Positions 7,972 through 51,790 of a stretch of 64,000 nt of DNA are shown here, piece by piece (the stretch's first letter is position 1; every line of letters begins with the position of its first letter). A program made the translations under genes and the position numbers. The notes beneath the pieces are model-generated. The model saw only the letters and a program-made list of their open reading frames with translations. It searched no databases and was not told the origin of the DNA. Source of the stretch: a virus (taxonomy: Duplodnaviria > Caudoviricetes); IMG/VR virus record IMGVR_UViG_3300037484_000250, positions 1-64,000 of that record. One strand, given 5' to 3'.

Positions 7972-8057
7972 CCATATAGGTTATATCGCGTGAATATAAC
8001 TCATATGGTTATATTTTACTTTTTCTGGATAAATATGGTAGTAATAGATTAAAAAAA

Positions 8058-8234
8058 TTATGGGTAATAGTTTGAACAGCGCAAACAAACTTCCTCATCG
8101 TATTCCTCAAGATAGCATTTCTTATCGTCGGTATATTTGCAGGGGAGATATTCAGTTTCAGAATTTTTTCCAGTGAGGCAGTCGGGAGATCCACAACCGA
8201 ATGGGTATTCTTCGCATCCTGTGCATTCTATCAT
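8058..8234 (-). CDS. 58-aa Cys-rich protein (not in ORF track), divergent from array 1
   Basis: RBS AAGGGAG then MIECTGCEEYPFGCGSPDCLTGKNSETEYLPCKYTDDKKCYLEEYDEEVCLRCSNYYP. Confidence 0.7.
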   Translation of the reverse strand: MIECTGCEEYPFGCGSPDCLTGKNSETEYLPCKYTDDKKCYLEEYDEEVCLRCSNYYP

Positions 8235-8256
8235 TAATTTATTATCAACTCCCTTA

Positions 8257-8265
8257 TGATATAAT
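8257..8265 (+). promoter_or_regulatory. Extended -10 promoter candidate for array 1
   Basis: TGATATAAT (TGnTATAAT) about 50 nt upstream of the first edge repeat. Confidence 0.55.
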
Positions 8266-8313
8266 GAATATAGGACAAGTATAGGCCGAAGAAATTGAAT
8301 TAAGCAATACCTT

Positions 8314-8419
8314 GAAGCGAATCAATGACAAAAGAATAGCACCATGTAGCCAGAGTGAGCCAATCTTCATGAATTAAAACAATATACAAGAGCGAACCAA
8401 TCACGGGAAGATGCCCATA
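8314..8419 (+). repeat. TIGR-like dual-repeat array 1, leader-proximal segment (about 3 units)
   Basis: AGCGAATCA / AGTGAGCCA / AGCGAACCA edge repeats at 36-38 nt spacing with an intervening loop repeat ending in CCA/ACA. Confidence 0.85.
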
Positions 8420-36101: not shown

Positions 36102-36806
36102 ATGGCGGATATTCTTATAATTTCAGCTCATCCGGACGATGAAGTGCTAGGTTGTGGCGGAGTAATAGCGAGATCGGTAAGAGTTGATAATCAAGATGTA
36201 TACATCGCATATTTGAGTTATGGAGCAATGGCAAGAAGACCGGGCGAAGATATGGATGATCTTGAAAAAGAAAAGATCAAAGATAGATCTAGGGCTGCGA
36301 TATCGGTGTTAATGGGTGTATCGAAATCAGATATTAAAAAACATTTAAGGTTTGTAGATTTTCCAGACAATCAATTTGATACAGTACCATTCATAAATAT
36401 TGTTCGTTTGATAGAAGAACTTATCGATGAGTTACAACCGGATTGCATATTCACGCATTCCCAGAAAGATTTGAATATTGATCATGTTATAACACACAGG
36501 GCAGTATTGACGGCGACAAGACCGATGAAGGATAAGCATAGAGTATCAGCTATATATACATTTCCTATTCCGTCCAGTACGGAATGGGCATTTTCATCTT
36601 TTGGAAGTTTCTCGCCGAATGTATTCTTTGATATTGCGACATTTACTGAACTGAAAATTAGAGCATTAAAATGTTATGATACAGAGGTGAGAGCATTTCC
36701 TCATCCGAGATCGGTTGAACTTATTCAAGTGATGGCATGTTTTATGGGATCTAGTGTGGGAATGGGGTCGGCAGAGGGGTTTGAAGTTGTTAGGTGTTTG
36801 ATATGA
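36102..36806 (+). CDS. PIG-L/LmbE family N-acetyl-sugar deacetylase
   Basis: AHPDDEVLGCGG, FPDNQFD, DLNIDH, HPRS; ORF track start 36087. Confidence 0.9.
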   Translation: MADILIISAHPDDEVLGCGGVIARSVRVDNQDVYIAYLSYGAMARRPGEDMDDLEKEKIKDRSRAAISVLMGVSKSDIKKHLRFVDFPDNQFDTVPFINIVRLIEELIDELQPDCIFTHSQKDLNIDHVITHRAVLTATRPMKDKHRVSAIYTFPIPSSTEWAFSSFGSFSPNVFFDIATFTELKIRALKCYDTEVRAFPHPRSVELIQVMACFMGSSVGMGSAEGFEVVRCLI

Positions 36807-41373: not shown

Positions 41374-42831
41374 ATGCAAGTTCAGGAGTATTTGGATGTA
41401 GTTTTGGATACTCTCAAAAAATTCATACCAAAAGAAACGTTTGATAAGATTCACGAAATAGCAGTTCCAGAAGAAATAATTAAGGGTGTAACACCGTTCA
41501 AGGATTTACCTCTTGCAGATAGGGAAATGGAATGGGATGGATCGGAAGCTGAAAAAAATATTAGAGTGTGGGCAGGGGGAAGCGACAAGGAAGATATAAA
41601 TTGGGGTAAATTTAGTCAAGGATTCTTATGGGTTGATGATGAAAATAAGGAAGCATTTGGTGGATATAAATTCCCGATTGCAAATGTGATTGATGGAAAA
41701 TTAATGGCAATACCGAGAGGAATATTTGCTGCAGCAGGAGTTCTCAGTGGAGCTAGGTTGACAGGTGGAGCATCACAAATAAATGTTCCAGAAGAAGATA
41801 TACAGGGAATGAAGGATCATGTTGATAGATATTATGCGAAGATGAGAGAAATGTGGGATGATGAAAAATTAATCAGTCCATTCAAAAAGGAAATTACATT
41901 ATCGCAAAAAAGGGACGAATTTGTTCCAATGGTCAAAAGTTCGGGGAAGGAAAATTCTCAAATAGCTTTCGTCGGAGCTTCACCGGGGAAAATAGAATAT
42001 TTAAGGGGAGAAGCATTTGTCGGGCCGTGTGGAGAAACATTTAATGAATTATATATTAAACCATTAGGATTGGGCCGTGAGGATATATTTTTAACCAATG
42101 CTGTACCAATGTTATTAATTGATAAATCGGGAAATGTCAGAGAACCGACAGATATTGAGGTTAGTGATTGGGGTGAGTGGTTAGAAAAGGAATTGGAAAT
42201 GGCTAATCCTAAAGTAATCGTAGCTCTAGGACATAAAGCTAAAAAAGCTCTTGGTGAAAATGTTGATTTTGTTTTGCCCCATCCTATGGCGATTCGAAGG
42301 TTTAATGATTCTGGTGAGGTTGGAAGAAAACTGAAACAGATAAAAGTTAAACTTGAGGAAATCAATAAGGGATTGCCTACCGTAGGGGATGTCCATATAG
42401 ATTCAACTAATTGGGAGAGGCCAAAGATTAAACCAAATACCCAAAATGATGAGGTAATCTATGCCGATATAATCAAAGCTGATGTCGAAAAGCAACTTGT
42501 ATATGGCATAGTTTTAGAACCGGGAAGTGTCGATGCACAAAATGACACGATAGGTGCAGAAGAGATAGAGAAAGCTGCACACAATTATTTACAGAATTCT
42601 AGAGTTATAGGAGAGTCACATAAGGCCAAGGCCAAGGCCAATGTCGTTGAAAGTTATCTTGCTCCGTTAGATTTTACGTTTGGTGGTCAAAAGGTAACTA
42701 AAGGCACATGGGTAATGGTCGTTAAAATCAATGACGAAAAAATGTGGGAGGATGTGAAAAGCAAAAAATTTAAAGGTTTCAGCATAGGGGGATTTTCAAG
42801 AAGAGTTCCAGTCACAGAACCAGTAATGTAA
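41374..42831 (+). CDS. Multidomain head protein: uracil-DNA-glycosylase-like domain fused to XkdF-like putative prohead protease
   Basis: IAFVGASPG..EAFVGPCG, LTNAVP, PKVIVALG, HP (family-4 UDG-like); C-terminal QLVYGIVLEP..DAQND..EKAAHNY..KGFSIGG. Confidence 0.75.
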   Translation: MQVQEYLDVVLDTLKKFIPKETFDKIHEIAVPEEIIKGVTPFKDLPLADREMEWDGSEAEKNIRVWAGGSDKEDINWGKFSQGFLWVDDENKEAFGGYKFPIANVIDGKLMAIPRGIFAAAGVLSGARLTGGASQINVPEEDIQGMKDHVDRYYAKMREMWDDEKLISPFKKEITLSQKRDEFVPMVKSSGKENSQIAFVGASPGKIEYLRGEAFVGPCGETFNELYIKPLGLGREDIFLTNAVPMLLIDKSGNVREPTDIEVSDWGEWLEKELEMANPKVIVALGHKAKKALGENVDFVLPHPMAIRRFNDSGEVGRKLKQIKVKLEEINKGLPTVGDVHIDSTNWERPKIKPNTQNDEVIYADIIKADVEKQLVYGIVLEPGSVDAQNDTIGAEEIEKAAHNYLQNSRVIGESHKAKAKANVVESYLAPLDFTFGGQKVTKGTWVMVVKINDEKMWEDVKSKKFKGFSIGGFSRRVPVTEPVM

Positions 42832-43788: not shown

Positions 43789-43855
43789 TTTTACGATTTC
43801 TTTTTTATTCAAACAAGTAAAGTAGGTGAGGTGTATCAAGGAAGATAAATTGATT

Positions 43856-44749
43856 ATGGAACTTACGGGTTTAAATGTCGAAGAAATATCTTTAGTAGGT
43901 AAGCCAGCTAATGAACGATTATTCTTACTTTTAAAGCAAGAAGGAGGAAATACCTTGGGTGCGTTAAATGATGTTTTGAAATCACTCAATGAATTGGATA
44001 TTGACCTAGATAATTCTGAGGGTATTGAAAATATCCTGAAAAAAATGAAGTTGAGTGAGAAAGCCTGTGATGCTGCAAAAGGAGCACTCAAATTAATGAC
44101 GGCATATAAGGAAGAAATGCCGAAGGGATTCATGGAGAAATTGATTGATATGGCTGGTTATGGTGATATGGAAGAAGAGGTAATGGAGAAACCAGCTACT
44201 CCAAAAGGAGGGAAAGAGATGCCTAAACAACCATTCGTTTCGGAGAAAAAGAAGATGAAAAAGGAAGATGGATCATTAGACATTGATGCTATTCCAGAAG
44301 AATCCCGCGAACTTGTTCAGATGCTTTGGAAAGAACATGAATCTGCGATCAAGAAAGCTGATGAATTGGAAGCTATACTCAAGGCAGAGCGAGAAATCAG
44401 AATCACGAAAGAATATCAAGAACGCGGAGCAAATTTCCAGAATATTGGAACTGCCGAAGTAGTAGGTGGCATTTTGAAGAAAGCATATGAAGTTTCGGCT
44501 GAGTATGGTTTGCAATTGGAAAATTCATTAAAAGATGCCAATGCTAAGATTGAAAAGTCGGATTTGTTTAAGGAAATTGGTTCTGATGCAACAAGCACAA
44601 ATGACAGTTCTTGGGCTAAGATTGAAGAATTAGCAAAGGGTCTTGTTATGAAAGGTGATGGACAAACAATGGCCCAAGCCATTGACAGAGTCCTTGCCGA
44701 AAATCCGAAGCTCTATGAAGAGTACACTAGAGAAAGGAGCGGAAAATAA
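43856..44749 (+). CDS. Capsid scaffold/maturation protein
   Basis: VEEISLVGKPAN N-terminus; acidic/Lys-rich coiled coil; ends in L..EY; precedes capsid genes; ORF track start 43826. Confidence 0.7.
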   Translation: MELTGLNVEEISLVGKPANERLFLLLKQEGGNTLGALNDVLKSLNELDIDLDNSEGIENILKKMKLSEKACDAAKGALKLMTAYKEEMPKGFMEKLIDMAGYGDMEEEVMEKPATPKGGKEMPKQPFVSEKKKMKKEDGSLDIDAIPEESRELVQMLWKEHESAIKKADELEAILKAEREIRITKEYQERGANFQNIGTAEVVGGILKKAYEVSAEYGLQLENSLKDANAKIEKSDLFKEIGSDATSTNDSSWAKIEELAKGLVMKGDGQTMAQAIDRVLAENPKLYEEYTRERSGK

Positions 44750-45138
44750 TGGCTTACGATATCAAAAATCTCAGTTTTTCTTTAATTGCATCTTCTAGCT
44801 ATGGTTTAATGCAGTACCGTGGTGTAAGAGCATCGACGGTGGTAGATCATTTCTCAATTGGGGCAACAACTGGTACAATTCGCCCATTGGGTATCCTTCA
44901 AAATAATCCTGATGTTGGTGAATCAGGGGAAATTTGGGTTCCGGGATGTATTTCTAAGATTATGACAGGATCAGCCCTTGCCATAGGTAATAGATTCCAT
45001 ATTCTTAATAATGGTAGAGCATATAGCACTGGAGCAATTGCAGCAGGATCAGCTATGTATGGGCCAGTTCTAACGGTTGCAGCAGGGTCTAGCGAACTTG
45101 TCACAGTCAGTTTCGCTTCATTTGGAGTCACCACCTAA
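44749..45138 (+). CDS. Capsid decoration/cement-like protein
   Basis: PLGILQNNP..GE..I...G.SK motif; between scaffold and major capsid gene. Confidence 0.7.
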   Translation: MAYDIKNLSFSLIASSSYGLMQYRGVRASTVVDHFSIGATTGTIRPLGILQNNPDVGESGEIWVPGCISKIMTGSALAIGNRFHILNNGRAYSTGAIAAGSAMYGPVLTVAAGSSELVTVSFASFGVTT

Positions 45139-45337: not shown

Positions 45338-46321
45338 GTGAGCGATTTGCCGAATCCAACGCTTAGTGACGTTCACGTAGACCGTGCATTAACCAACATT
45401 TCAATTGCGTATATCCAAGACACAGAGCGAAATTTTATCGCAAATAAAGTATTCCCGATCGTGCCTGTTACCAATAAGAGTGATAGGTATTTTATTTTTT
45501 CACAGGCTGATTTCTTCCGAAACGAAGCTAAAGTCAGAGCGCCGGGGGCTGAAACTGCGGGCGGAGGATATAGATTAAGTACAGACAATTATAATTGTGA
45601 TGTACTTGGTTATCATGCAGATCTTGACGATCAGACTCGGGCTAATGCTGATCAACCTCTTCAACTTGAAAGATCTCACACAGTTTATGTAACTCAGCAA
45701 CTCCTTCTTAAACGTGAGGTTGAGTGGGTCAGTCATTTCTTCACAACTGGTTTATGGACTGGATCGACAACGGGTACAGATTTAGTCGGTGCTGTGGACT
45801 TTACCCAATGGGATAATATTGTTAGTACTCCTATTGAGGATATCACTAATCAAGCTGATAGTATTTCTAGGAAAACTGGATATAGACCTAATTGTTTAGT
45901 TCTAGGGCCAGAAGTTTATACAACATTGAAAAATCATCCAGACATCCTTGACCGCGTTAAGTATACCCAAAAAGGAGTTATCACGGAAGATATCTTGGCA
46001 GTTCTGTTTGATGTTGAGCGTGTGCTTGTACCAAGAGCTGTACAGAATACGGCTGCAGAGACAGCTACTGCAACTTATGCATTCATCTATGGGAAGAATG
46101 CTTTCCTTGGATATTCAGCACCAGCGCCCGGTCTTTATCAACCTTCGGCTGGATATCTGTTCACTTGGCAGGGTCTATTCGGAGCAGGAGCAGAGGGTGT
46201 CAGGATCAAGAATTTCCGTGTAGAAGTAAATGCAGCTAATCGTATTGAGGGTGAATCTGCATGGTCGATGAAAGTTGTTGGTGCAGATCTTGGTTGTTTC
46301 TTCTCGGCAGCTATAGTTTAG
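45338..46321 (+). CDS. Major capsid protein
   Basis: VHVDRALTNISIAY.Q, FIA.KVFP.VPV, PN.LVLG..VY..LKNHP; about 330 aa; terminator follows. Confidence 0.88.
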   Translation: MSDLPNPTLSDVHVDRALTNISIAYIQDTERNFIANKVFPIVPVTNKSDRYFIFSQADFFRNEAKVRAPGAETAGGGYRLSTDNYNCDVLGYHADLDDQTRANADQPLQLERSHTVYVTQQLLLKREVEWVSHFFTTGLWTGSTTGTDLVGAVDFTQWDNIVSTPIEDITNQADSISRKTGYRPNCLVLGPEVYTTLKNHPDILDRVKYTQKGVITEDILAVLFDVERVLVPRAVQNTAAETATATYAFIYGKNAFLGYSAPAPGLYQPSAGYLFTWQGLFGAGAEGVRIKNFRVEVNAANRIEGESAWSMKVVGADLGCFFSAAIV

Positions 46322-46416: not shown

Positions 46417-46803
46417 ATGGGGTTTGAAAAAGAACAACGTCCAGCTATGAAAACATTCGATGAAAGATACAGAATTCAGGCGATAACCAGCACAGCGACA
46501 ACTATTCTTGGATATGGTGTTACTACTTTGTCATCTACTAAACCGGGGACATTAACATTTAATATTGAACCACCACTCTTTGCGGGGGCAGATAAGACCA
46601 TCATTGCATTAGTGCAGTCGGGTTCGTCGTCGATCTATAAAGTTATCCCGAATACTACAACAATTTTTTATGGTTCAACTTCATCTAGCACAGGAAGAGT
46701 CATAGCATTCAGTGCGCCGGGAGAGGTTGTTCAATTAATTGCTGTATCAGCGACTAAGTACCAAGTCGTTTCGAATTTATCAAGCACATTTGGTACGACT
46801 TAA
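46417..46803 (+). CDS. Ser/Thr-rich structural hypothetical protein
   Basis: GGAGG RBS; TSTATT, GSTSSSTG, SSTFGTT. Confidence 0.7.
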   Translation: MGFEKEQRPAMKTFDERYRIQAITSTATTILGYGVTTLSSTKPGTLTFNIEPPLFAGADKTIIALVQSGSSSIYKVIPNTTTIFYGSTSSSTGRVIAFSAPGEVVQLIAVSATKYQVVSNLSSTFGTT

Positions 46804-46847: not shown

Positions 46848-48149
46848 GTGGGCAATGAGTATATTAAAAGGCCAATCTATTCAAATATGCTTAGGAATCT
46901 TCCATCAACTGACAGCTATTTATTTTCAGATGGAGATATTAATTTGCAACTGCGTTCCACGGCTGGGGTTACAAAAGTAAGCATATTAAATGCTTCAACA
47001 GTCGAAGTTGCTAGTATTAATTCTCTAGGAGTTGCAAGTTTTACTGGTCTTGCTGCCACAAGTGATTTTGATGTAACTGGAAGTTTTACTGTTAACACGG
47101 ATGATTTTGTAGTTTCTGCAACATCTGATATATCGATGAAACCTACTGGTGGAGATGTAAAGATCACATTAGGGGATGCAGCAGGAGCAAGGAAATTCTT
47201 CATCAAAGATTCAGCGAATAGTACTGTGGCAACGATTGATTCAGATGGTACGGCTACAGTGATTAAGTTAACGGCAAGTAGCGACATTTCGGGTCAGTCG
47301 GTGAGTGCAACAAGTAATCTTTCCAGCGTTAATTTAACAATTAACACGGATGATTTTGTAGTATCTGGAACATCAGATATATCAATGCTCCCCACTGGTG
47401 GAAATGTGAAGATCACATTAGGGGATGCTCTAGGTGCTAAAAAATTCTTCATCAAAGATTCAGCTAATAGTACAGTGGCAACTATCGATTCAGACGGTAC
47501 AGCTACAGTCGTTAAATTGACAGCAAGCAGTGACATTTCCGGTCAATCGGTCAGCGCATCGAGTAATCTTTCAGGTGTTCACCTTGCAGCAACATCCGAT
47601 GCAGCGATCACTGGTGCATTAACAGCACGGTCTGTTTCTTCATCGAGTAATCTTTCAGGTGCTCACCTTGCAGCAACATCCGATGCAGCGATCACTGGTG
47701 CATTAACAGCGAGGAGTGTTTCTTCATCGAGCAATCTTTCAGGTGCTCATGTGACAGCAAGTTCTAATTTCGTAGCTACTGGTTTTGTGCAAGGTGGAGG
47801 TTTTGTTGATTCTTATCTTGCTAAAACTACGGCAACGGTAGGAACGGCTATTCCTAATAAAGGACTCACGTCGTTGGCACAAGTAAACACGACCCAAGTA
47901 ACATGGACGTTGGAAGATCCTACGGCAGCAGGATTTCTTAAAACAATTTTCGTGCTTAGTCAAATTGGTACTACGGCAAGAACTTTCATATTACCAGCAT
48001 CGACAAAGACAGTTTTCTCTTCATCTCAAGGATCTACAGGTAGAAAAATTACATTCGATGTTGCAAGAGAAGCGGTTTCCATGGTGAGTGCATCGACAAC
48101 TACATGGCTAGTTTATAATAGCCAATTCGGTGCATTTGGATCATCATAA
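46848..48149 (+). CDS. Ser/Thr-rich repeat protein (head fibre/decoration candidate)
   Basis: Two ~80-aa repeats (VNTDDFVVS.TSDISM.PTGG..KITLGDA.GA.KFFIKDSANST) and ~28-aa repeats (SSSNLSG.HLAATSDAAITGALTARSV). Confidence 0.75.
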   Translation: MGNEYIKRPIYSNMLRNLPSTDSYLFSDGDINLQLRSTAGVTKVSILNASTVEVASINSLGVASFTGLAATSDFDVTGSFTVNTDDFVVSATSDISMKPTGGDVKITLGDAAGARKFFIKDSANSTVATIDSDGTATVIKLTASSDISGQSVSATSNLSSVNLTINTDDFVVSGTSDISMLPTGGNVKITLGDALGAKKFFIKDSANSTVATIDSDGTATVVKLTASSDISGQSVSASSNLSGVHLAATSDAAITGALTARSVSSSSNLSGAHLAATSDAAITGALTARSVSSSSNLSGAHVTASSNFVATGFVQGGGFVDSYLAKTTATVGTAIPNKGLTSLAQVNTTQVTWTLEDPTAAGFLKTIFVLSQIGTTARTFILPASTKTVFSSSQGSTGRKITFDVAREAVSMVSASTTTWLVYNSQFGAFGSS

Positions 48150-48234: not shown

Positions 48235-49140
48235 ATGAGTGAAAACCAAGTTAAAGAACAAGTTGAAACGGTAGAAATTTCCAATGTAGCGGTTCAGCAA
48301 CCATGTGATGTATCAAAATATGTGGCTGTTAAAGAAGAGATATTGGAATTTAAAAGGTATTCTGATAGTGTTATGATTTTAGGATTTGCACCGGATAGTT
48401 TAAAGTATGCCCCACTTGATGCGAATAATATTGACATATGGGCTTTAAATGAGCTTTACATGGATAAGCCGAAAATTGCTATACGAGCGACAGCGTGGTT
48501 TCAACTTCATGGATATGAACCTCCAAAGATTAGAGATGCACAACAAGTTAAGAATCTATCATTTTTAAAATGTCCAATAATTATGTGGCGGAAACATCCT
48601 AATATTCCAAATTCTATTGAATATCCGTTAAGGGAAATTCTCGAAGAATTTGATATTTATGGGGATGATATGGCCCTCGATCAACCGGACGTTAGGACTA
48701 GGGTATATTTTACGAATAGTATTTCTTGGATGATAGCTCTTGCAATAAAGATGGGTTATAAAGATATCCAGATCTATGGTGTAAACATGGCGCAAGACCA
48801 AGAATTTCAACATCAAAGACCAAGTTGTGAATTCTTTTTAGGCTGGGCAAGAGGAAAGGGAATCAAGATATATAAACCACCAGTTTCGGATTTGCTCTTG
48901 ACTCCTTATTTATATGGCTATGATGATGCTACTGCATACATGCAAAAGCTAGAGGCCCGGCGGATTGAACTCATCGAAAGAGTTGAAGGGACGAGAAGAC
49001 AAAGGATCTCATTCCAAGAACAATCGAATCAGCAATTACAAGCAGAACAGAATTTACTTGGTGCGCTGCATGATGTCGAATATATTATGAGACTTGGAAA
49101 TCCAGTTAAGTTAGATGAATTTTCTAAGCCAAAGGGGTGA
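48235..49140 (+). CDS. Putative sialyltransferase-like (GT42/CstII, GT29/Maf-type fold) glycosyltransferase
   Basis: VMILGFAPDSLK..DIWALNELY and TNSISWMIALAIKMGYKDIQIYGVNM resemble CstII VIIAGNGPSLK..DVFRCNQFY and TSGVYM.AVAIALGYKEIYLSGIDF (recalled from memory). Confidence 0.55.
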   Translation: MSENQVKEQVETVEISNVAVQQPCDVSKYVAVKEEILEFKRYSDSVMILGFAPDSLKYAPLDANNIDIWALNELYMDKPKIAIRATAWFQLHGYEPPKIRDAQQVKNLSFLKCPIIMWRKHPNIPNSIEYPLREILEEFDIYGDDMALDQPDVRTRVYFTNSISWMIALAIKMGYKDIQIYGVNMAQDQEFQHQRPSCEFFLGWARGKGIKIYKPPVSDLLLTPYLYGYDDATAYMQKLEARRIELIERVEGTRRQRISFQEQSNQQLQAEQNLLGALHDVEYIMRLGNPVKLDEFSKPKG

Positions 49141-51082: not shown

Positions 51083-51790
51083 TTGGCAACTCATGGTAAG
51101 CATGCAAGGACATATATTAATGGATTTGATTTGAGTGCTTATCTAAATAGTTTTGGAGTAGCACAAACGGCGGATACAGCAGAAACTAGTGTATTTAGTT
51201 CTAGCGACAAAACTTATGTAGTAGGACTTAGAGATGCGACAGTATCGGCAGAAGGATTTTTTGCGGGTAGTACATTCGAATCTGATTATGTCTTTGATCA
51301 AGTTTTAGGATCGACAAATATATGGTCATATTATCCGGCTGGGCCAGCACTTAGTAATGCTGGATATGGTATTAAGTCAATCGAAAATTCTTATGAAATA
51401 ATGAGTCCTATTGATGGTGTTGTTTCTGTTACTGTTGAAGGTCAAGCAATATTAGGAGCAGACAGAATTCTATCACACCATGACCTTATTGCAGAAAGTA
51501 CTACTGGCAGTGAAACATCTATTGATGCAACTGCTTCGAGTACGAAAGGTGCAACTGGTTATTTACAAGTAACAGGATTTACGTTGGGACAAACTGCTCA
51601 AATTGTAATCGAAGAATCTTCAGCAGGAACGTCATGGGCGACACTAATATCATTTTCATCCGGTGGAAGTATAGGTGCTCAAAGGGCTATTTCGTCAAGT
51701 GGGACAGTTAAACGTTTCACTAGGGCAGCATGGACTGTGTCATCTAGTAGCGGATCAGTGACATTTAATGTCGGCATGAAAAGAAGATAA
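51083..51790 (+). CDS. Tail tube-like protein 1 with C-terminal extra domain
   Basis: MATHGK..ETSVF.SS.K.Y..GLRDAT.S.EG; paralogue of the next gene. Confidence 0.7.
   Translation: MATHGKHARTYINGFDLSAYLNSFGVAQTADTAETSVFSSSDKTYVVGLRDATVSAEGFFAGSTFESDYVFDQVLGSTNIWSYYPAGPALSNAGYGIKSIENSYEIMSPIDGVVSVTVEGQAILGADRILSHHDLIAESTTGSETSIDATASSTKGATGYLQVTGFTLGQTAQIVIEESSAGTSWATLISFSSGGSIGAQRAISSSGTVKRFTRAAWTVSSSSGSVTFNVGMKRR

Follow-up and report, generated by a model that had tools for sequence, protein, structure and literature searches.

Bacteria are known to O-glycosylate the proteins of their flagella, pili and S-layers with sialic-acid-like sugars, and a few actinophages are known to have glycosylated virions. 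The Campylobacter jejuni enzymes CstII and CstI (PDB 1RO7, 2P56) belong to glycosyltransferase family GT42 (PF06002). In CstII, His188 is the catalytic residue, and Tyr156 and Tyr162 bind the phosphate. The Maf proteins (PF01973, MptE-like/DUF115; PDB 5MU5) O-glycosylate Ser and Thr of flagellin from CMP-nonulosonates, and their activity depends on acidic residues and Ser (preprint 10.1101/2020.06.03.131540). Among phages, virion glycosylation has been described for Che8 and other mycobacteriophages (Freeman et al. 2023, cited in PMC11256854). In the literature that we searched, there was no report of phage particles decorated with nonulosonates, and viruses receive no mention in a large survey of nonulosonate synthases.

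The window analyzed here is a stretch of 64,000 nucleotides (positions 1 to 64,000 of the IMG/VR record IMGVR_UViG_3300037484_000250). The virus record from which it comes is complete, is 83.5 kb long and has direct terminal repeats. The ORF under study, 48235-49140, is located in the head operon, which runs in the order scaffold-like gene, cement-like gene, major capsid gene, two Ser/Thr-rich ORFs, ORF 48235-49140, head-tail joining genes and tail genes (Table 1). Synteny of the cement-like gene and the capsid gene is also seen in related loci. On the 3' side, the ORF is followed by the head-tail joining genes, the tail terminator (PF12691) and the major tail proteins (phrog_9522). No convincing plus-strand terminator was found between the capsid gene and the ORF. 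The two Ser/Thr-rich ORFs upstream belong to one family, called here ST, and other virion proteins of this phage are also Ser/Thr-rich. The head module contains one more unusual gene: the 485-aa protein encoded at 41374-42831 is an odd fusion of a uracil-DNA-glycosylase-superfamily domain (PF03167, E 4e-19) and an XkdF-type prohead protease domain (PF14550, E 2.6e-32).

Table 1. Features of the head operon and of the putative nonulosonate pathway (positions in the window)
Feature	Position	Strand	Remarks
PseB-like UDP-GlcNAc 4,6-dehydratase	23851-24813	+	TIGR03589, 405.6 bits, just short of the cut-off of 407.75
PseC-like aminotransferase	27384-28460	+	PF01041, E 2.6e-109; TIGR03588, E 3.6e-107, under cut-off
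Nonulosonate synthase 1 (NeuB/PseI family)	29848-30927	+	PF03102, E 1.2e-56, and SAF domain; NCBIfam
Nonulosonate synthase 2 (NeuB/PseI family)	30924-31964	+	PF03102, E 1.5e-63, and SAF domain; NCBIfam
Hexapeptide-repeat acyltransferase	31906-32367	+	PF00132; weakly NeuD/PglB/VioB-like
Second DegT-family aminotransferase-like protein	32354-33310	+	PF01041, E 4e-48
WbqC-like protein	33298-34044	+	PF08889, E 7.9e-75
Two methyltransferase genes (TylF-like, class I)	34041-35386	+	PF05711, PF08241
PseF/NeuA-like cytidylyltransferase	35387-36100	+	PF02348, E 5.2e-19; TIGR03584 (PseF), E 1.6e-42, under cut-off
PIG-L-family deacetylase	36087-36806	+	PF02585, E 1.2e-23
Scaffold-like protein	43826-44749		Head operon, same orientation as ORF 48235-49140
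Cement/decoration-like protein	44749-45138	+	PF09956 weak, E 0.0039, under cut-off
Major capsid protein	45338-46321	+	phrog_1005, E 4.7e-91; Pfam Phage_cap_E
Small Ser/Thr-rich head accessory protein (ST family)	46417-46803	+	128 aa; candidate acceptor
Larger ST-family protein	46848-48149	+	433 aa; candidate fibre-like acceptor
GT42/Maf-fold transferase-like protein	48235-49140	+	ATG start, 301 aa; single copy in genome

An earlier reading of the sequence alone had placed the ORF between Ser/Thr-rich head proteins and the head-tail connector and had assigned a CMP-nonulosonate pathway to the same phage. Both claims held. The pathway is represented by PseB-, PseC- and PseF-like genes and by two NeuB genes; the product of the cytidylyltransferase gene would provide the CMP-activated donor. 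By sequence similarity, the pathway is of the Pse type. In the complete genome, we found no matches to GT2, GT1/4 or MptE-like proteins. A second transferase elsewhere in the genome was set aside because neither GT2 nor GT1/4 was matched. Since these matches are absent and the family is present in a single copy, ORF 48235-49140 is the only recognizable candidate user of the donor. The pathway region also contains genes of another kind. Two genes of sigma-70-family factors (regions 2 and 4; 28656-29300 and 29321-29851) are located between the PseC-like and NeuB genes, and a 409-aa protein with a Dam-type N6-adenine methyltransferase domain (PF05869) in its C-terminal half is encoded between the PseB-like and PseC-like genes (25640-26869).

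Conventional searches say little about the product of ORF 48235-49140. In Pfam, CST-I (PF06002) was matched below the threshold (E 0.0054, residues 162-190 only), and the score of 16.7 bits does not reach the gathering cut-off of 25 bits. PF01973 (MptE-like/DUF115) gave no match to the ORF at E up to 10 and none genome-wide at E up to 0.1. There was also no match for the protein in PHROGs, in NCBIfam or in a single-sequence search of PDB sequences. Using a profile of 50 family members (A1) against PDB sequences, we found that the seven best matches are CstII chains (E 2.2e-4 to 6.8e-3); CstI was matched at E 0.04. The alignment with CstII joins profile positions 21-160 to CstII 3-163 and covers both motifs, from the N-terminal Gly-rich loop through the central motif. 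In this alignment, GFAP-S lies over GNGPS, LNE lies over CNQ, and the central motifs lie over each other. The protein has counterparts of the GT42 nucleotide-binding motifs, namely the Gly-rich loop, the Asn after strand 2 and the central T/S-S-G...G-Y-K-E-I...G-I-D. The likeness of its motifs to those of CstII is beyond chance resemblance.

The AlphaFold (AF2) model of the protein, built on A1, has a pLDDT of 87 and a pTM of 0.77. It consists of a Rossmann-like core at about residues 43-222 and a 55-residue C-terminal helix at 233-287. Foldseek with this model put CstII/CstI first (E about 2e-5, probability 1.0). VIA-align, which is independent of Foldseek, matched CstI with Z 11.8 (rmsd 3.3 over 165 aa) and Maf (5MU5) with Z 9.9 (rmsd 3.0 over 155 aa). 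It was followed by archaeal MptE HPPK (Z 9.1), SteA (8.8), ST8SiaIII (7.2) and thiamin pyrophosphokinases (about 6). From these two rankings, the fold is therefore predicted to be sialyltransferase-like/DUF115, with GT42 as the nearest family; this rests on a model and not on a solved structure. In a library of viral structures, the close matches were only uncharacterized proteins of uncultured phages, followed by DUF115/MptE-like and GT29-like proteins of giant viruses.

We compared 237 family members by residue conservation. G50, W69, H92, P131, N161, G182, E190 and Y227 are conserved in 92-100% of them, and Q194, P196, S197, E199 and D219 in 86-94%. The loop around the invariant E190 has the form GV[DN]MAxDxE[YF]xxQRPS. 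The protein studied here deviates from the majority at two positions: residue 191, which is Tyr in 85% of members, is Phe, and the GVDM motif has Asn in place of its usual Asp. No conserved His was found between residues 186 and 230 in the 237 members, and the only near-invariant His is H92. The His188 region of CstII lies outside the sequence alignment, which ends earlier, and no conserved His counterpart was found in the family. We propose the E190 loop together with H92 and N161 as a putative active site. This is inferred from conservation and from the rough position relative to the CstII lid and the Maf acidic residues, without a residue-level superposition. Because Maf uses acidic residues and Ser, and no conserved counterpart of His188 was found in the family, Maf-like chemistry may be the better analogy.

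Inteins were found in several members, which are 375 to 606 aa long. The two insertion sites lie next to each other, one following D188 and the other following Y191, with the invariant E190 in between. The inteins inserted after query residue 191 (P0141, P0180, P0215, P0218, P0078 and P0189) end in His-Asn. Insertion after query residue 188 was found in P0122, P0149, P0197, P0255 and P0210; the junction could be read only in P0255, where the intein ends in Ser-Asn. The first residue of the inteins is Cys and the last is Asn, and the next residue is Ser. LAGLIDADG_3 domains are present inside the inteins of P0210 and P0180. Inteins typically occupy conserved functional sites, and this is the reason to regard the E190 loop as important. 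It is in itself unusual for a glycosyltransferase-like phage protein to contain inteins.

We regard these proteins as a new phage-specific family within the CstII/Maf fold, which is formally a member of neither GT42 nor Maf. This is because PF06002 remains below the threshold, PF01973 is not matched, no conserved counterpart of His188 was found, and the flanking domains of Maf are missing. An exhaustive phmmer search of 1.8 billion representatives gave 3153 clusters (50% identity) at E <=0.001 and 1675 at E <=1e-10. All 140 relatives obtained by a word-indexed search are annotated as 'hypothetical', and none of them has a Pfam domain except P0037, which has PF07498. The family is present in at least 551 IMG/VR contigs. 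On the cellular side (one genome per species, 185,579 prokaryote species), 16 loci were matched, all on short MAG contigs. In a language-model atlas, the neighbours are only viral 'hypothetical protein' clusters. Thus, the family is in effect restricted to phages. Among GenBank phages there is one homologue, in Microcystis phage Mvi-Yong1342-1 (L001, PP496355.1, 11917-12720; 31% identity), which is located directly before terS. It is annotated as 'type 11 methyltransferase'; this name is unsupported and is probably wrong. The phage itself comes from a culturable host strain. Another observation concerns copy number: the NeuB-positive viral contig behind L239 (G074) has four tandem short paralogues (195-217 aa) on the minus strand at 27765-30176, which recall the multiple maf paralogues of Campylobacter.

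The family is associated with the nonulosonate pathway in both directions. NeuB was found in 33 of 44 family-bearing contigs from two separate samples (19/24 and 14/20). In the first sample, which consisted of long records, the same 19 also have CTP_transf_3, the NeuA/PseF-type cytidylyltransferase, and both genes are present in 7/7 records that are at least 90% complete. The second sample was drawn with two other subfamilies (A4, A5) and contains mostly fragments; both of its complete contigs have NeuB. Over the two samples, NeuB is present in all 9 family-bearing IMG/VR records of at least 90% completeness. To give the scale, tblastn with the NeuB of this phage matched only 3 of 50,697 GenBank phage records. 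In the reverse direction, the family was found in 12 of 43 NeuB-positive viral contigs and in 6 of the 13 complete ones. This sample comprised viral contigs of at least 30 kb chosen by a back-translated IEKHFTLD pattern; only NeuBs with that motif were sampled, and all 43 contigs were NeuB-positive.

These counts were not corrected for shared phage ancestry. The NeuB-positive family contigs span at least three capsid gene clusters. NeuB, NeuA/KdsB and KdsA were all absent from five family-bearing records, namely the complete Mvi-Yong1342-1 and four partial contigs, two of which are 73% and 84% complete. It is possible that the NeuB-less members draw on donors of the host. Among cultured phages in GenBank, the family and NeuB do not occur together in any genome. 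In L052, L054, L056 and L057, the transferase gene adjoins NeuB, NeuA or DegT genes. The arrangement in L057 is peculiar: at about 8000-12800 two family members flank the NeuB gene, and a NeuA-like gene lies downstream. Because the members flank NeuB there, the transferase of some phages is embedded in the sugar cluster and not in the head module.

The two ST proteins have an S+T content of 28% (46417-46803) and 29% (46848-48149). The larger one has N-terminal repeats and a Ser/Thr-rich tail at its C-terminal end; its C-terminal domain and tail are shared with the smaller one, and both fall into the same BLAST cluster. When the ORFs of 82 loci were clustered, the ST family, which includes both upstream ORFs, turned out to be the commonest neighbour of the transferase gene. 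The ST gene directly precedes the transferase gene in loci where the capsid gene before the pair is lambda-E-like, and also in loci where it belongs to a cluster of about 420 aa or to one of about 300 aa. Thus, the gene pair is found behind several capsid genes. According to the HMM search, an ST gene ends no more than 300 nt upstream of the transferase in 41/85 loci, and in the second sample the upstream gene matches the ST profile in 30/60 loci. In about half of the loci no ST gene is detectable upstream of the transferase; it is mostly absent for distant short members. Genes upstream of the transferase, of any family, have a median S+T of 25.7% against a background of 13.8% (p 3e-18). At least four S/T among the last eight residues are found in 67% of ST proteins and in 6.7% of background ORFs. 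Of the 43 NeuB-positive genomes, those with the transferase family are the only ones in which the ST profile was matched (3/12 vs 0/31, Fisher p 0.018).

AF2 modelled the 128-aa ST protein as an all-beta domain (pLDDT 80). Its structural matches are the attachment domains of tailspikes, Solidus gp83 (Z 10.8) and CBA120 TSP4 (Z 10.4), as well as a baseplate protein (Z 9.5) and the capsid spike of Pa223 (Z 7.5); the next unrelated match has Z 5.4. From adjacency, composition and predicted fold, we infer that the ST proteins are the best acceptor candidates and are located on the virion surface. There are no proteomic data on this point.

The sequence-only reading had described the ORF product as having two motifs like those of CMP-sialic-acid enzymes (GT42 CstII/GT29/Maf). 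This held: both motifs are present and align to CstII. It would have been refuted by a fold unlike that of sialyltransferases or by a family found mostly in phages without a CMP-sugar pathway. Neither was observed; the predicted fold is sialyltransferase-like, as the CstI and Maf matches show, and the distribution is the opposite, with NeuB in three quarters of the family-bearing contigs. Of the proposed acceptors, those starting at 46417 and 46848 are supported by conserved adjacency, although their acceptor role remains an inference. For the tail tube protein at 51083, we have no evidence for or against. The general reading, a transferase serving virion glycosylation, is thus supported by computation; transfer activity, donor identity and modification of the virion are inferred.

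We consider it likely that ORF 48235-49140 encodes a CMP-nonulosonate transferase. There is no biochemistry behind this, and both catalysis and the donor are inferred. That the enzyme glycosylates the adjacent ST spike/fibre proteins is a less secure proposal, which we favour by a small margin; the modification is inferred, without biochemical or proteomic evidence. In the mechanism that we propose, the late-expressed PseB-, PseC-, NeuB/PseI- and PseF-like enzymes of the phage and its tailoring enzymes would make a CMP-activated nonulosonate of the pseudaminic-acid type in the infected cell. The transferase would then move this sugar to Ser/Thr hydroxyls of the two ST proteins. These are predicted to be spike/fibre-type virion proteins, and their Ser/Thr-rich bodies and C-terminal tails would give the head a coat of acidic sugar. 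Attachment to Ser/Thr, the acceptor role of the ST proteins and their location on the capsid are all inferred.

The objection that carries most weight is that the enzyme is a CMP-nonulosonate transferase with a different acceptor. This could be another virion protein (major capsid, cement or tail tube) or, during infection, the LPS, capsule, S-layer or flagellin of the host. The fold and the NeuB/NeuA association are silent on the acceptor, no ST gene can be recognized upstream in about half of the loci, and the gene lies inside a sugar cluster in L054, L056 and L057 and before terS in the Microcystis phage. In addition, GT42 enzymes act on lipooligosaccharide, and other virion proteins of this phage are rich in Ser and Thr too. 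Against this, the pair of ST and transferase genes recurs behind at least three capsid gene families. The near-absence from cellular genomes (16 MAG contigs) fits a target supplied by the phage, and the gene runs in the same direction as the head genes, from which no convincing plus-strand terminator separates it. We judge a different acceptor to be unlikely.

A protein that is not a glycosyltransferase at all is a much weaker possibility. It could be a pyrophosphokinase of the same fold (MptE or thiamin type), or it could serve the upstream fibre protein as an assembly factor or chaperone, without any catalysis of its own. The fold is indeed common to MptE HPPK (Z 9.1), SteA (Z 8.8) and thiamin pyrophosphokinases (Z about 6). 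Chaperone genes often follow fibre genes, the long C-terminal helix may be a docking element, and no conserved counterpart of the catalytic His of CstII was found. But the best matches of both sequence and structure are GT42 and not kinases, and for this reason, together with the lack of a PF01973 match, a kinase-type function was set aside. Such a protein would also leave the two-way association with NeuB and the cytidylyltransferase unexplained, and the near-invariant polar residues of the 237 members and the inteins in the E190 loop argue for catalysis. This explanation seems to us very unlikely. It can be all but excluded that the donor is used on a non-protein target of the phage, for example phage DNA or a small molecule. 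Phages do glycosylate their own DNA with other sugars, and inteins are common in proteins of DNA metabolism. However, nonulosonates are not known to occur on DNA, and the gene is located in the head module beside surface-type proteins and not among replication genes. Thus, the preferred reading remains a CMP-nonulosonate transferase acting on the ST proteins.

A bolder reading takes the family as a third, phage-only branch of the CstII/Maf fold, whose enzymes would coat phage heads in hundreds to thousands of tailed lineages that are still uncultured. The coat would consist of pseudaminic-acid-type sugars on dedicated trimeric Ser/Thr-rich spikes or fibres, and the donor pathway would be encoded in the phage genome. 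We consider this reading as a whole slightly more probable than not. If it is true, this is an undescribed class of virion modification, whose likely roles are adhesion, protection from proteases or grazers, or masking of the particle. A phage with its own nonulosonate and with a dedicated transferase and acceptor in the head module would join the fields of bacterial sialic-acid-like glycosylation and virion glycosylation. It would explain the costly 10-gene sugar pathways inside phage late operons and could provide new nonulosonate transferases for glycoengineering. Naming the family would improve the annotation of many uncultured phage genomes, as Pfam, NCBIfam and PHROGs have no entry for this large family.

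Of the known systems, C. jejuni CstII/CstI are the best match to the protein by both sequence profile and structure. The model reproduces their single-domain sialyltransferase-like (modified GT-A) fold. The N-terminal G-x-x-P-S nucleotide loop and the Asn after strand 2 are common to CstII and the phage protein. The central motif is TSGVYM...GYKEIYLSGID in CstII and TNSISWM...GYKDIQIYGVN in the phage protein. A CMP-nonulosonate donor like that of GT42 is inferred from the gene association with NeuB and CTP_transf_3. In contrast to CstII, the phage protein stays under the Pfam cut-off and has a long C-terminal helix, and no conserved counterpart of the catalytic His188 was found. Where CstII has its lid, the phage protein has only a short region, with another invariant motif (E190...Q194-R-P-S). 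The family is also confined to phages, and its acceptor is probably, by inference, a protein and not lipooligosaccharide.

By analogy, Maf is likely to be the closest working model, since it would mean Ser/Thr O-glycosylation of a polymerizing surface protein with Pse/Leg-type CMP donors. The central domain of Maf has the same fold as the phage protein, which also has invariant acidic residues and conserved Ser/Asn, as in Maf. However, PF01973 is not matched, and the 301 aa are about half of the 5MU5 chain (632 residues). The model has no flanking domains and comprises one Rossmann-like domain and a single long helix. The gene adjoins phage head genes and not flagellar genes, and the family is absent from cellular genomes save the 16 MAG contigs. 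The layout expected of phage self-glycosylation, a transferase-like gene in the head module together with Ser/Thr-rich structural proteins, is present; the modification itself is inferred. As in the virion glycosylation of Che8, a phage-encoded transferase would modify the phage's own structural proteins and give the particle a glycan shield. Unlike in Che8, the fold family and the CMP-nonulosonate donor are inferred to be different, and neither GT2 nor GT1/4 is matched in this genome. This phage carries the whole donor pathway, and its probable acceptors would be accessory spikes or fibres and not the capsid subunit.
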